Origin: an uncultured Candidatus Micrarchaeota archaeon
Lineage (GTDB): Archaea > Micrarchaeota > Micrarchaeia > Burarchaeales > Fermentimicrarchaeaceae
NCBI GenBank assembly: GCA_963760615.1
Contig: CAVXDX010000016.1
Location: 1 to 17,121 of the forward strand
Direction of reading: 5' to 3'
DNA length: 17,121 nt
Every line of letters begins with the position of its first letter. The first letter of the stretch is position 1. The notes under the pieces are model-generated. The model was given only the letters and a program-made list of their open reading frames with translations, was not told the DNA's origin and did not search any database. Below are positions 8,968 to 17,121 of this stretch, one piece after another. Position numbers and translations under genes: made by a program.

Positions 8968-9001
8968 CAGTAGTTATTTACCTATAACACTGGTGCAGTG
9001 T

Positions 9002-9733
9002 ATGAAGAAAACAGTACTTAAGCTAGCGGATGTGTCCAAGGAATACGACGGTTCGGCACCGTTTCGGGCGTTGTGCGACTTAAGCCTTGAAATAGAAGAG
9101 GGGGAGTTCGTCTCAATCGTAGGTCCTTCGGGAAGCGGTAAGAGCACGCTTCTGCATATTCTGGGTTGCCTGGACAAGTCCACAAGCGGGGAGATGTATC
9201 TGGATGGAGTGAAGGTGTCAACGCTTGGCGATGATGCGCTGGCTGATATAAGGCGGGATAAAATAGGCTTCGTCTTCCAGGCGTTCAACCTGGCTTCAAC
9301 TTTGAATGTATTCCAGAATGTTGAACTGCCGCTCATGATTCGTGATGTAGACGCCGGGGAGCGTAAAAAAACAGTAAACAGGCTCCTAGGTATTGTGGGT
9401 CTACAGGACAAGGCGCGTAATATGGCGCCGCAGCTCAGTGGCGGGGAGAAACAGAGGGTTGCAGTGGCCAGGGCGCTCGCCAATGATCCGAGCATACTTC
9501 TGGCTGACGAGCCGACTGGAAACCTGGACTCAAAATCAGGCAAGGATGTTATGGATTTGTTCTCAAAACTGTGGAGGGAGGAGGGGATGACCGTTGTACT
9601 CATAACCCACGAGCCACAGGTTGCAGCTTATGGTAACCGGATACTATACTTGCGGGATGGGCGGATTGAAAGGGATGAGGCCAACAAGCCGAGGAAAGTT
9701 GAAGGGATAAAAATAAAGGATAAGGGTGATTGA
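9002..9733 (+). CDS. ABC transporter ATP-binding protein (LolD/MacB type)
   Basis: Walker A GPSGSGKS, Q-loop FVFQ, signature LSGGEKQRV, Walker B LLADEPTGNLD, H-loop ITHE. GTG 8993 is an alternative start. Confidence 0.95.
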   Translation: MKKTVLKLADVSKEYDGSAPFRALCDLSLEIEEGEFVSIVGPSGSGKSTLLHILGCLDKSTSGEMYLDGVKVSTLGDDALADIRRDKIGFVFQAFNLASTLNVFQNVELPLMIRDVDAGERKKTVNRLLGIVGLQDKARNMAPQLSGGEKQRVAVARALANDPSILLADEPTGNLDSKSGKDVMDLFSKLWREEGMTVVLITHEPQVAAYGNRILYLRDGRIERDEANKPRKVEGIKIKDKGD

Positions 9734-11266
9734 ATGCAAATTTGGAAATTAGCGCTTCTGGCGCTTGTAATTGTTTTTGTTGGCGGCACGGCCTTTGCAG
9801 CTCCAACGAACCAGAGCAATGTGGCGCTGCAGGTGACGGACTACTCACTAGTCCCGCCGGCAGTTTACCCAGGAACTTCGGGTTATGCGAAACTCACAGT
9901 GACAAACACTGGAACGGACGGCGCGAGCGGTATCACTGTATACTATGACTACTCACAGAGCAGCACGCAGTTGTTCACTTACACAGGTGATATAAGCGGC
10001 GGCTCCAGCGAGCAGGTTACGATTCCATTCAAGATTCCGCAGCAGGTTCCCAGCGGGATTTACCTGATAAATGTCAACATATATTACACACCTTCCTCAA
10101 GCGCACAACAGAAGAAGACATCCATCTCCATACCAATAATTATTTCGCAGTACCAGGCTCTGGAAGTGACGACTCTTGGGAGCGGAAGAGAAGTGATAGC
10201 ACCTGGCGAGGCATTCCAGCTCCCGCTATCTATAAACAATACTGGTGGTGTGGTGAACAACCTTCTGGTGACGACGCCGCAGAACTCTTCATTCTCCCTA
10301 GAGGGGACAACACAGAAGTCCATAGGGAATATTGCTTCAGGAATGAGCACCAATGTGACAATAAACCTCATATCTGCTTCAACGGCATCGCTCGGCCAGT
10401 ACACAATTCCGCTTATCTTCACATACCAGGACGCATCTGGGAACACCACCTCCCTGACACTGTATGTTGGGCCCGTGAGCATCCTTGAACCCTCATCACA
10501 ATTCAGGCTCAGCATGAACCCGCTCACCCCAACAGAGGTGGGCTCGCAGGCAGTGCTCCAGTTGACAATTGAGAATATTGGCACGAGTCCACTTAGTGCC
10601 GTTGTTGATGTTAATGCCACGAACGCATTCACTCCTATTGGCATCTCGCGCGTTTACTTTGAGTCCATTGGATCTGGCCAGAATGTTTCAAAGAACGTAA
10701 CGCTGGGCATTTCAAACAGCGTCTCGGCGGGGTATTATGTGCTGCCGCTTGCTATTAGCCTCAGCTCTGGGAATGTGGTCACCCAGAATGTTGGAGTGCC
10801 AGTAACGGCAACTCCTGACCTCACAGTCACTGCTAGCTCATCTGGTGGGACTGTCAGCGTACAAATTTCGAACACGGGCAACGCGCCGATTAGGAGTGTC
10901 TATATAACTGCCTCCTCAAAGGACTTCACAATAGCCGGAGGGGTAGACAAGTTCGTAGGGACATTGAATGTTGATGATTTCACCACCATGTCCCTTACAG
11001 TTGGCGCCCAGAGGGCCGTGGCAAGCAACCGTACAATTACAGTGACAACCAGCTTCAAAGACAGTAATAATATACCGCATGTGGTGACAAAGGATGTTGA
11101 GGTGGGGGCGTCTTCGAGCAATTTTACATCAACCACATTTGGGAACAGAGGCAATAACGGGGTTATTTTTGGTTTGAGCTGGACAGAGATACTTGGAGGC
11201 GTAGTTGTTATAGTGATTGCCTACCTTGCGTATAGGCATTTTAGGAAGAGGGGCGCAAAGGCATGA
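9734..11266 (+). CDS. COG1361-like S-layer/Ig-fold repeat surface protein
   Basis: Signal peptide ending AFA; repeated beta-rich units with N.G and G.Y motifs; many N-x-S/T sequons; C-terminal TM plus basic tail. Sits between ABC ATPase and permease. Confidence 0.8.
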   Translation: MQIWKLALLALVIVFVGGTAFAAPTNQSNVALQVTDYSLVPPAVYPGTSGYAKLTVTNTGTDGASGITVYYDYSQSSTQLFTYTGDISGGSSEQVTIPFKIPQQVPSGIYLINVNIYYTPSSSAQQKKTSISIPIIISQYQALEVTTLGSGREVIAPGEAFQLPLSINNTGGVVNNLLVTTPQNSSFSLEGTTQKSIGNIASGMSTNVTINLISASTASLGQYTIPLIFTYQDASGNTTSLTLYVGPVSILEPSSQFRLSMNPLTPTEVGSQAVLQLTIENIGTSPLSAVVDVNATNAFTPIGISRVYFESIGSGQNVSKNVTLGISNSVSAGYYVLPLAISLSSGNVVTQNVGVPVTATPDLTVTASSSGGTVSVQISNTGNAPIRSVYITASSKDFTIAGGVDKFVGTLNVDDFTTMSLTVGAQRAVASNRTITVTTSFKDSNNIPHVVTKDVEVGASSSNFTSTTFGNRGNNGVIFGLSWTEILGGVVVIVIAYLAYRHFRKRGAKA

Positions 11267-12507
11267 AAATTTTGGATACGGCAACGCTTGCAGTCAATGC
11301 GCTGCAGCACAGAAGCTTGCGAAGCTGGCTGGCCGTTCTCGGTATAATAATCGGTGTTGCCGCCATAGTTAGTCTGATTTCCGTCAGCTTCGGGGTGAGC
11401 AACCAAATCAGCTCAAGGCTTAACACACTTGGGAGCAACATGATAACCATCAGCCCTGGCGGTCAGGGAGCTGAGAGGTTCGGCATTGGCGGTATTAGGG
11501 CGCCAACGACGCAAGCACGTGTCGGGGAATTTGGGGGAGGTGGGGGGGGCACAAACCAAATCACATTCACAGAAGCAGAGGACTTGCGGTCTCTCCCTGG
11601 AGTGGAATACTTGGACGCAAGGGTGCAGGGCAGGGGGAGAGTGCAGTATGTTGATAAGAATACTTCCCTAGGGATTACTGGAACCGACCCACAGGCGTTT
11701 GCCGGTACGGTTGGGGTGGGAGTGCTCTCAGGTAGGATGCTTGGCGGAAGCGACCAGTACTCGGCAGTCCTTGGTTTTGCGGTTGCAAATAACACCTTCA
11801 ATGATTTGGATATGGTGAACAGGCAGATAAAAATCAATAATGTGACTTTCAGAGTTGTGGGAATTCTGCAGTCAAGCGGTGCCAGTTTCGGCGGGGCGGA
11901 TTCACAAATATTCATCCCGCAAAAGACGGCGGAAAATATGTTCAACCAGACAAAAACTGTAAGCCAGATTGTTGTTGCAGCAGACCCGAATTATGACACG
12001 GACACTGTCGCAGCGGAAATTGAGAATGAACTCATATCACTGCATCATGTTACTCCAACTACCGAGGATTTCACAATTATGACTGCAGCGACTGTTCAAT
12101 CTGCTGTGGCGAGTGTGACAGACACCCTCTCTTTGTTCTTGGGGGGCATTGCCTCGATATCTCTCATTGTGGGGGGAATCGGCGTCGCAAATACTATGTT
12201 TATGAGTGTGCTTGAACAGACAAAGTATATTGGATTGCTGAAAGCGCTGGGGATGAAAAACCGGGATGTGCTTATGCTCTTTATGCTTGAGGCTGGAGTA
12301 ATTGGTTTAGTTGGTGGTGTGTTGGGTGTGGGGTTGAGTATGGGTGTTTCGGCGGTCTTGGATCAGTTTGGGGTGCCTTCTGCGATAACAATTGATTTGG
12401 TACTTCTGGGGCTTGGTTTCTCAGTTCTTGTGGGCCTTGTTTCAGGGCTTGTTCCCGCGAGAAACGCAGCATCCCTCCAACCAATTGATGCGCTGAGATA
12501 TGAGTAA
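11263..12507 (+). CDS. ABC transporter permease (MacB/FtsX family)
   Basis: LRSWLAVLGIIIGVAAIV TM1, large extracellular domain, ISLIVGGIGVANTMFMSVLEQTKYIGLLKALG, and C-terminal PARNAASLQPIDALRYE. Confidence 0.95.
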   Translation: MKILDTATLAVNALQHRSLRSWLAVLGIIIGVAAIVSLISVSFGVSNQISSRLNTLGSNMITISPGGQGAERFGIGGIRAPTTQARVGEFGGGGGGTNQITFTEAEDLRSLPGVEYLDARVQGRGRVQYVDKNTSLGITGTDPQAFAGTVGVGVLSGRMLGGSDQYSAVLGFAVANNTFNDLDMVNRQIKINNVTFRVVGILQSSGASFGGADSQIFIPQKTAENMFNQTKTVSQIVVAADPNYDTDTVAAEIENELISLHHVTPTTEDFTIMTAATVQSAVASVTDTLSLFLGGIASISLIVGGIGVANTMFMSVLEQTKYIGLLKALGMKNRDVLMLFMLEAGVIGLVGGVLGVGLSMGVSAVLDQFGVPSAITIDLVLLGLGFSVLVGLVSGLVPARNAASLQPIDALRYE

Positions 12508-15429: not shown

Positions 15430-15515
15430 AATACCCGTACTCTAATCTAATTTATCTGTTTTCTCGTACCACAAGCTTTTTATTCGCTCCAAATACAATG
15501 AATCTGGGTGGTCCA

Positions 15516-17121
15516 ATGGACTTATTCGGGAAATTCAGCATATTTATTATTATATCTGCCATCCTGCTTTTTGGTTGCACCTCGCAACAACAACTCCAGC
15601 AATTTTTTCAGAGTAATCAGTCAAGCTCAGCATGCATACAGGAAAACAGCATATGTGGCTATGGAACTGCTCCGCCTAGCACTCTTGCTGCTAACAAATC
15701 GCAATTCTACGGAAAATGCTGCGAAGGTTACGCATGTGTGGAAGGCTACTGCAAAAAAACAACTGAGAATTGTGTTGGGAAGGGTCAGCTTTGCGCATAC
15801 GGGCCAACCGCGCTAGCGCACCCAGAAAATCTCACTTATTACGGAGAATGCTGCGAGGGCGAATGCACAAATGGATACTGTAAGACTGCTTGCAAAACCT
15901 CCGGCTCTTGCACCACTGCTGCAGACTGTTGCACAGGTCTTGAGTGTACTAACGGGCAGTGTAAAGTTCCGTGCAAAACCTCCGGCGCATGTGCAGGTAA
16001 CTCGGACTGCTGCGCAACCTACTACTGTGACGAGACTTCAAAATGTGCCAAGGTATGCAAAACCAGTGGTTCCTGCGCTCAGAACTCAGAATGCTGCTCG
16101 GGATACTTCTGCAGCCCCAACCTTCAATGCATTCCAGAGCCGAAATGTGTCGAGCACAGGGGCAGCTGTACCACCACAGGCCAGTGTTGCTCAGGCCTCG
16201 AATGCGTTGGTGGAACGTGCACAAACACAACATGTAAATGGGGAAGTGCCTGCAACAGCACATCAGAATGCTGCACCGGCCTGTACTGCGGCCAAACTGG
16301 AATTTGTGGTATAGAGACATGTTCAGAAATCAACAACTTATGCAACACTACTGACGACTGCTGCCTTGGTGCAAAATGCCAGAATGGCACCTGCATAAAT
16401 TGGACCTGCTCATCACTCAACGAATCCTGCGCTTCAATCAGCTGCTGCGCGGGGCTGACGTGCATGAACTACAAATGCTCCACCCCATGCAAAATATCTG
16501 GAATATGCTCAAAGAATTCTGAGTGTTGCACTGGCTATTACTGCAGCCCCATGGGCTATTGCGCTAAAATAGCCTCCTGTGTTTTCGAGAGTGCCAACTG
16601 CACAAACACCTCGCAATGCTGTTCTGGGCTTCAATGCAATAACGGACAATGCACAAAATACTGCAAACAATCTGGCCCATGCTCCAGCAATTCAGAATGT
16701 TGCGCAGGCTACCTTTGCAATGCAGATATGCAGTGTGCCCCTCAACCAGTAATTCTCTGCGCGAATTCCTTCCCGAACTGCACAGGAACCTGCAACAGCG
16801 GATGGTGCTTTAACTCAGGGCCTGGGATCTGCACATGCGCAGCATACGATGATAATTCATGCACCAGTCTGTGCTCCTCTTCGGGATCACCTTACGGAAG
16901 AAGAGTCCACAGCTCTAGTAACTGCAGCGCATCAGAATCATACATAAACGGCTGCTGTTGTTACTCTCAGGCTGCTCCGCCGCAACAGCCACCACAACAA
17001 AGCTGGTACTACTGTTGCTATTCAAACGGCCAAAATCACTGTTCCTCAACATTATGTCTCCCAACGGAGTTTACAATGGGCAGCGGTTTCTCCTCCCAAC
17101 AGTCATGCCAATCCTCATGTC
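15516..17121 (+). CDS. Cys-rich tandem-repeat lipoprotein (at least 535 aa, 3' end outside the window)
   Basis: Manual translation shows no stop from ATG 15516 (alternative 15498) to the window end. Signal MDLFGKFSIFIIISAILLFG-C, about 91 Cys (about 17%), 13 N-x-S/T sequons by hand count. Confidence 0.92.
   Translation, partial: MDLFGKFSIFIIISAILLFGCTSQQQLQQFFQSNQSSSACIQENSICGYGTAPPSTLAANKSQFYGKCCEGYACVEGYCKKTTENCVGKGQLCAYGPTALAHPENLTYYGECCEGECTNGYCKTACKTSGSCTTAADCCTGLECTNGQCKVPCKTSGACAGNSDCCATYYCDETSKCAKVCKTSGSCAQNSECCSGYFCSPNLQCIPEPKCVEHRGSCTTTGQCCSGLECVGGTCTNTTCKWGSACNSTSECCTGLYCGQTGICGIETCSEINNLCNTTDDCCLGAKCQNGTCINWTCSSLNESCASISCCAGLTCMNYKCSTPCKISGICSKNSECCTGYYCSPMGYCAKIASCVFESANCTNTSQCCSGLQCNNGQCTKYCKQSGPCSSNSECCAGYLCNADMQCAPQPVILCANSFPNCTGTCNSGWCFNSGPGICTCAAYDDNSCTSLCSSSGSPYGRRVHSSSNCSASESYINGCCCYSQAAPPQQPPQQSWYYCCYSNGQNHCSSTLCLPTEFTMGSGFSSQQSCQSSC
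15633..16736 (+). repeat. 12 tandem six-cysteine modules with C-C-CC-C-C spacing
   Basis: Examples: CKTSGSCTTAADCCTGLECTNGQC and CKQSGPCSSNSECCAGYLCNADMQC. DNA-level echo TGCAAAACCTCCGGC at 15891 and 15972. Confidence 0.9.

Follow-up and report, generated by a model that had tools for sequence, protein, structure and literature searches.

A Micrarchaeota gene for a predicted lipid-anchored array of twelve knottin-like modules with a variable C-terminal cassette region

Known knottins, or inhibitor cystine knot (ICK) peptides, are free, secreted eukaryotic peptides of 25–40 amino acids (aa) built on a C-C-CC-C-C framework, such as the Toxin_12 spider toxins CcoTx-II, jingzhaotoxin-XI and SGTx1, the omega-conotoxins and EETI-II. 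The paper describing the KNOTTIN database in 2017 reported knottins as absent from archaea (PMC5753296); its entries include some sequences from bacteria and viruses. Tandem ICK toxins such as DkTx and Xt3a (PDB 7rz3) join two units head to tail through short linkers and are soluble venom components. Here we describe a gene, termed gene A, in a 17,121-nucleotide stretch of DNA (hereafter the window; contig CAVXDX010000016.1 of assembly GCA_963760615.1) from an uncultured Candidatus Micrarchaeota archaeon. Its modules are like the ICK peptides in framework, loop lengths and predicted fold, and short linkers likewise join its head-to-tail units. By contrast with the known examples, twelve such units are fused in one archaeal protein of 672 aa, together with a predicted membrane anchor and non-ICK cassettes at the C terminus. 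Our literature search returned no description of archaeal or prokaryotic ICK arrays; one preprint considered as a description of this family (bioRxiv 10.64898/2026.06.07.730663) concerns another cysteine-rich repeat. New here are a test based on correlated cysteine loss, the joining of two contigs, the predicted lipobox anchor, the mosaic of head cassettes and the predicted fold of a C-terminal repeat unit.

Gene A lies on the forward strand, and its open reading frame (ORF; 15498 or 15516 to 17120) reaches the end of the window without a stop codon. Cysteine spacing defines twelve modules with six cysteines each, none of which is of a four-cysteine type. Modules 1 and 2 (15633–15881) have a long second loop (C-x6-C-x18/20-CC-x3/4-C-x4-C), while modules 3–12 (15891–16736) form ten ICK-spaced units (C-x5/6-C-x4/5-CC-x4-C-x4/5-C), in agreement with the module count and spacing given in an earlier reading made from the sequence alone (the sequence-only reading). 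The linker length of 3–5 aa that it gave holds for all junctions except that between modules 1 and 2, where the linker measures 6 aa. The linker sequences (KVP, AKV, IPEPK, TNTT, GIET, INWT, STP and others) share no common cleavage motif. We counted the module pattern in all six-frame ORFs of the 1.14-Mb genome and found it 10 times in gene A and 11 times in a neighbouring gene, B. Only three further ORFs contain it, none more than once, and this concentration is not due to chance. Many modules carry an aromatic CCxGY[YF]C motif and, after Cys I, an invariant Lys. The protein as a whole has few charged residues and is dominated by S, T, N and G.

The window is the whole of contig C16 of this genome (G000; 16 contigs, 91% complete), and gene A continues beyond it. 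The final 427 bases of C16 (window 16695–17121) are identical to the first 427 bases of contig C2 (G000:C2:1–427). Reading across this overlap places the stop codon at C2:840 and yields a protein of 672 aa with 109 cysteines (16%). Five independent metagenome contigs show the gene order expected from joining C16 to C2, namely NAD(P)HX dehydratase, HAD hydrolase (opposite strand), A, the cysteine-rich paralogue B, purL and purQ, which confirms the join. Across the junction, collinearity also holds with the C terminus of orthologue P0004. The assembly broke within the repeat-rich gene A and left a 427-base duplicate at two contig ends, so gene callers would see two truncated fragments. The ORF recognized by the sequence-only reading is real but incomplete. 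The C-terminal third and paralogue B were missed, and both change the functional picture.

Several lines of evidence indicate a knottin-like fold. Alignment A1 comprises 112 distinct modules from the window, C2 and the loci of relatives, and the best matches of its profile among sequences of solved structures are almost all ICK peptides: the remipede toxin Xt3a (E = 1.7e-5, the best match), spider toxins, omega-conotoxins and asteropsins. The C-subdomain of Dkk4 CRD1 (PDB 5o57) is also matched (E = 4e-4) and has the same spacing, C-x6-C-x5-CC-x4-C-x4-C. Scanned singly against Pfam at E ≤ 0.1, the 112 modules matched Toxin_12 (68 modules), Dickkopf_N (65) and Conotoxin_I2 (40), with a best E-value of 1.5e-4. 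Curated cut-offs lie higher: Toxin_12 (PF07740) scored 16.1 bits on module 5 against a gathering cut-off of 21, Conotoxin_I2 (PF17557) 15.7 bits on the whole protein against 27, and Dickkopf_N (PF04706) at best 23.2 bits on paralogue B and 21.4 and 18 bits on orthologues against 25. Protein A reaches no curated Pfam cut-off; by sequence it resembles the Toxin_12 and Conotoxin_I2 families without being a member. Assignment to an already characterized family, which would have spoken against the sequence-only reading, did not occur.

AlphaFold2 modelled module 5 (16047–16139) from alignment A1 with a mean predicted local distance difference test (pLDDT) score of 90.7. Foldseek placed EETI-II at the top of the matches to this model (probability 0.99, TM 0.70), with spider toxins next, and a Foldseek-independent VIA search gave Z ≥ 2 for 36 of 48,161 chains, nearly all of them ICK, with CcoTx-II first (Z 3.6, root-mean-square deviation (rmsd) 1.2 Å over 28 residues). 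Superposition on knottins gave an rmsd of 1.0–1.4 Å over 25–28 residues. For a domain of 31 residues, low absolute fold scores are to be expected; the evidential weight lies in the near-exclusive presence of knottins in the match lists. A Dickkopf-like fold, which the sequence-only reading had named as an outcome that would count against a knot, did not emerge as a rival. In animal Wnt antagonists, Dickkopf_N spans two subdomains with 10 Cys in all, whereas the matches here cover single six-Cys units, and they fall on the CRD1 C-subdomain of Dkk4, whose disulfides (C5–C8, C6–C9 and C7–C10, that is, I–IV, II–V and III–VI) are reported to be fully conserved in ICKs (PMC6078440). As the matched subdomain itself has ICK connectivity, these matches do not represent a different fold.

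Cysteine loss provides a test that draws on many proteins. Searched exhaustively against 1.84 billion representatives, the module profile matched 1,389 clusters at E ≤ 1e-3 and, at the stricter E ≤ 1e-10, 251. We compared 1,410 modules from 167 proteins, all retaining Cys II, III and V. A bridge between Cys I and Cys IV predicts their joint loss, as seen: both are present in 1,333 modules and both absent in 53 (from 22 proteins), with 12 single losses of either cysteine (Fisher p = 2e-72, with repeats inside one protein being non-independent). The core left after this loss has two disulfides, as in the Dkk N-subdomain; the two-disulfide N-subdomain of Dkk4 parallels the four-Cys variants found in prokaryotic arrays. 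Profile, predicted structure and correlated cysteine loss together support a knottin-like nature of modules 3–12, as the sequence-only reading had suggested. The joint loss and the superposition on solved knottins lend indirect support to the putative disulfide pattern I–IV, II–V and III–VI.

The N terminus suggests that protein A is exported and anchored. A predicted signal peptide (15516–15578, MDLFGKFSIFIIISAILLFG-C) ends in a lipobox, ...ILLFGC, whose Cys21 is encoded by TGC at 15576–15578, the position already given by the sequence-only reading. This cysteine is kept in nine of ten orthologues, and the tenth, P0009, carries a transmembrane helix instead, which indicates that anchoring itself is what is kept. 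The lipobox reads L-F-G-C here and L/F-L/M-G-C in orthologues, so that positions −3, −1 and +1 fit [LVI][ASTVI][GAS]-C. The genome encodes at least 16 similar lipobox N termini, with Cys about 2–3 times enriched at +1, and lipoproteins and the lipidation protein AliA are reported to be common in DPANN archaea, AliA with gaps (PMC12462473). On these sequence features, protein A is probably lipid-anchored. A Q/S-rich tether (residues 22–39; 15579–15632), varying in length among orthologues, links the anchor to module 1.

The genome also encodes candidates for the modification of an exported, cysteine-rich protein. Three membrane-anchored proteins with a thioredoxin fold resemble DsbA (G000:C12:64329–65957 on the forward strand, and C1:7589–8026 and C8:122098–122478 on the reverse strand); one has two domains with CPYG motifs, and the other two carry CSYC and CPPC. 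They are candidate extracytoplasmic disulfide catalysts and answer one half of the suggestion, made in the sequence-only reading, to look for DsbA or VKOR oxidases. AglB is encoded in the genome, and protein A contains 15 sequons where 9.5 are expected (p about 0.03), several of them invariant among orthologues, which makes N-glycosylation plausible.

The region beyond the array differs in character. After residue 407, a further 265 aa comprise cassette X1 (residues 408–495; 16737–17000), which is cysteine-rich, ends in GCCC and occurs only in some orthologues, and then four copies of a 41-aa R unit. The first R unit (17001–17121; CC-x8-C-x4-C-x16-C-x3-C) runs to the end of the window, and three further units and the stop codon lie at G000:C2:428–840. 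The C-terminal third is a mosaic, here X1-R-R-R-R, and orthologues end in X1-R-Z-W, Y-R-Z-W, Y-Z-W, Y-X1-R-... or Y-W'-R-R-R-R. The 265 residues match no Pfam family and have no Atlas neighbour above noise, a profile of the R unit found nothing credible among PDB sequences, and a metagenome scan queried with the C-terminal region returned no relative. We modelled the second R unit (L004:445–567) with AlphaFold2 from a 13-unit alignment, A3, and obtained a beta-hairpin followed by a C-terminal helix that carries the C-x3-C motif (pLDDT 90.4). Fold matches to MbtH-like proteins (Z 4.0–4.5) and, in part, to Kunitz domains (Z 2.1–2.6) were judged to reflect a common beta-hairpin-plus-helix arrangement and were rejected as signs of kinship.

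Conservation separates the array from this C-terminal mosaic. Across the ten aligned proteins the array keeps a collinear order, with P0004 one module short, and its identity among orthologues is 62–83%. For three of four orthologues compared, 8–10 of the 12 modules find their best match at the same index; in the fourth, P0004, the one-module deletion shifts the numbering. Modules 3–12 show 62–72% identity among orthologues. Modules 1 and 2 are the best-conserved part, at 61–83% identity to orthologues and with invariant GYG, FYG, YGP and TYYGECC motifs.

Paralogue B (G000:C2:931–2727, locus L004) directly follows gene A after the join. It encodes 598 aa with 95 cysteines, an N-terminal transmembrane helix, 11–13 modules depending on the strictness of the pattern, and a non-module insert of about 130 aa. 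The A–B pair is kept in six metagenome contigs (L030–L035). In comparisons between contigs, flanking housekeeping genes are 71–94% identical, A 55–65% and B 42–57%, B diverging fastest.

The closest proteins to A are 52–68% identical, and those with names come from Candidatus Micrarchaeota metagenome-assembled genomes (MAGs; isolates Sv368, Sv174 and Sv319). Weaker relatives occur in Candidatus Iainarchaeum and Bilamarchaeaceae MAGs, so that the homologues in DPANN genomes for which the sequence-only reading had proposed a search do exist. Together with the housekeeping neighbours, these relatives establish the archaeal origin of the gene and exclude a eukaryotic or chimeric contig. Within the archaeal class the module is patchy, occurring in 19 of 201 sampled genomes and 10 of 110 genera. 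Unannotated arrays from Micrarchaeota, Iainarchaeum and Myxococcota share the same module profile; the two named bacterial members that we looked up are 'hypothetical proteins' of Myxococcota. Most sampled proteins of this wider superfamily have lipobox, Tat, transmembrane or pilin-like N termini. The orthologue group of gene A is set apart from them by its two long-loop and ten short modules, its lipobox, its X1, R, Y, Z and W cassettes, and its fixed position before the paralogue and purL.

We favour, with somewhat better than even confidence, a reading in which protein A is a lipid-anchored, disulfide-locked poly-knottin stalk that presents a recombining head for cell contact. Protein A would be exported through the Sec pathway to the surface of the Micrarchaeota (DPANN) cell, where the signal peptide would be cut at the lipobox, leaving Cys21 to carry the lipid anchor. 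Twelve knottin-type mini-domains with three disulfides each would then form a protease- and heat-resistant stalk, arranged like beads on a string and probably N-glycosylated, that would hold the distal head (X1 and the four R units) off the membrane. The head, its cassettes reshuffled between close relatives, would probably be the part that touches another cell or its envelope, and the transmembrane-anchored paralogue B probably acts as a partner of A or as a variant form of it. The basis for distinguishing stalk from head is the collinear, conserved array on the one hand and the cassette mosaic of the C terminus on the other; in addition, A and B diverge faster than the genes that flank them. 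In eukaryotic surface proteins, stalks of tandem, disulfide-rich epidermal growth factor (EGF) repeats likewise space a binding head from the membrane. Their fold and domain of life are different, and the likeness is a functional analogy that implies no homology. For cultivated Micrarchaeota, attachment to the host by fibres of unidentified nature or by direct contact of the surfaces has been described (PMC8784108).

Several observations weigh against the stalk-and-head reading. The best-conserved part of the protein, modules 1 and 2, is membrane-proximal, which fits a function within the array itself equally well. Head cassettes that are shared between orthologues are well conserved (R1–R4 are 81% identical to those of P0004), so the variability of the head lies in cassette content and not in sequence. 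At position −2, the lipobox has F, L or M, none of which the strict [ASTVI] consensus given in PMC12462473 allows. VKOR (PF07884), the second oxidase suggested, was not found in the 91% complete genome, and DsbB was not searched for. The flanking genes are housekeeping genes and give no functional hint.

Some of the same evidence would fit a structural role, in which the protein forms part of an envelope or coat, a disulfide-locked, glycosylated layer giving mechanical and anti-protease protection without a specific partner. The genome encodes several other very cysteine-rich exported proteins, and the low charge, the abundance of S, T, N and G, the conserved length and order of the array and the housekeeping flanks are all in keeping with such a layer. 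We nevertheless consider a coat rather unlikely, as the reshuffling of C-terminal cassettes and the divergence faster than that of neighbouring genes are more typical of interaction surfaces, and the occurrence in only 19 of the 201 genomes of the class is patchy. Activity could also reside in the modules themselves, acting as multivalent knottin-type binders, either squash-type protease inhibitors or hevein/Ac-AMP-type carbohydrate binders. Squash trypsin inhibitors are the top Foldseek matches, the modules are conserved position by position, and many of them carry the aromatic CCxGY[YF]C motifs, which prompted the hevein or chitin-binding idea, and the invariant Lys after Cys I. Similarity to the knottin fold, however, carries no information on a target, and none of the squash, hevein and chitin-binding families was matched significantly. 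Loop 1 of the modules (K-T-S-G-S) is, we presume, unlike the canonical inhibitory loop of squash inhibitors. No hevein or CBM18 entry appears among the sequence or fold matches, although absence from a match list does not exclude a family. We regard active modules as distinctly unlikely, and a protease-inhibitor role of protein A is unsupported.

Two further alternatives concern the nature of the modules and their fate. If the cysteines bound metal or formed non-knotted disulfides, the likeness to knottins would be one of spacing alone, and the weak E-values of the sequence and fold matches, for a domain of only about 28 residues, leave some room for this. The export signal, the extracytoplasmic DsbA-like enzymes, the confident AlphaFold2 model with its almost exclusively ICK neighbours and the joint loss of Cys I and IV speak against it, and we regard this alternative as very unlikely. 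The sequence-only reading had also raised the possibility of a precursor that releases knottin peptides. Such a polyprotein would be cut in its linkers into twelve free peptides that serve as toxins or signals. Precursors with ICK units in tandem occur in both plants and animals, and the linkers here are short. Yet all orthologues carry a predicted membrane anchor, either a lipobox or a transmembrane helix, the linkers have no common or conserved cleavage motif, the array is collinear in the ten aligned proteins, 265 aa of other domains follow it, and in related proteins the module sits on pilin-like and transmembrane-anchored chains. On these grounds, a peptide precursor is extremely improbable.

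A more far-reaching combination, in which the twelve modules are target-binding units that grip or manipulate host envelope proteins multivalently and are also true homologues of the eukaryotic ICK, Dickkopf and colipase units, appears unlikely to us. Should the prokaryotic modules be true homologues, the knottin fold would have its origin in prokaryotic surface proteins. Gene A and its relatives suggest that DPANN archaea and bacteria use the fold as a building block of anchored surface proteins and not as a free toxin. For DPANN biology, protein A is a concrete, conserved and fast-evolving probable surface protein and a candidate cell–cell contact factor. For protein evolution and engineering, the arrays are natural poly-knottin scaffolds, and the more than 1,300 protein clusters allow a comparison of two- and three-disulfide modules.

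The upstream region of gene A bears on its start and transcription. A TATA-like element, TTTTTATT (15477–15484, forward strand), lies about 35 nucleotides 5' of the start codon, and an element T(A/T)TTTAT(T/A) is kept at equal offset in the orthologous loci L030, L032, L035 and L036; from sequence, it is a putative promoter. A GGGTGG motif resembling a Shine-Dalgarno sequence (15506–15511, forward strand) lies 5–10 nucleotides before the ATG at 15516 and is conserved in orthologous loci. The conservation of both elements supports the start at 15516 and an independent transcription unit, and the N termini of orthologues (M-x-L-F-G-K) match this start. An in-frame upstream ATG at 15498 (15498–15515, forward strand; MN[LS]GG...) is also conserved in orthologous loci and overlaps the GGGTGG motif; this ATG may serve as an alternative or leaderless start, or the stretch may just belong to the ribosome-binding region. 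In another genome of the same genus, the orthologue at G003:C9:265–1167 (reverse strand; L010) has one in-frame TAA inside the array, which could mean that the gene is a pseudogene, that strains vary at this site or that the assembly is wrong.

Other cysteine-rich proteins are encoded elsewhere in the genome. A 341-aa lipoprotein (G000:C10:6380–7402, reverse strand; lipobox IAFGC) has 49 cysteines and is built from about 12 repeats, each of 26 aa with four Cys (C-x5-C-x5-C-x6-C-x6); a hidden Markov model of the ICK module gave no significant match to it. Two larger proteins, of 1,403 aa with 185 cysteines (G000:C12:41834–46042, reverse strand) and 464 aa with 58 cysteines (G000:C3:128933–130324, forward strand), have N termini that resemble class III (pilin-type) signal peptides. 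Within the window, which also encodes a family B DNA polymerase, RpiA, an M24 peptidase and an ABC/MacB transporter, positions 8993–12507 (forward strand) hold in a row an ABC ATPase, a 510-aa protein with Ig-like and NPCBM-associated domains and a MacB/FtsX-type permease. This row resembles a MacB-type exporter, but the gene in its middle is unusual. No RNA sequencing run is listed as containing this DNA, and one freshwater-sediment DNA sequencing run contains about one third of the sampled words.

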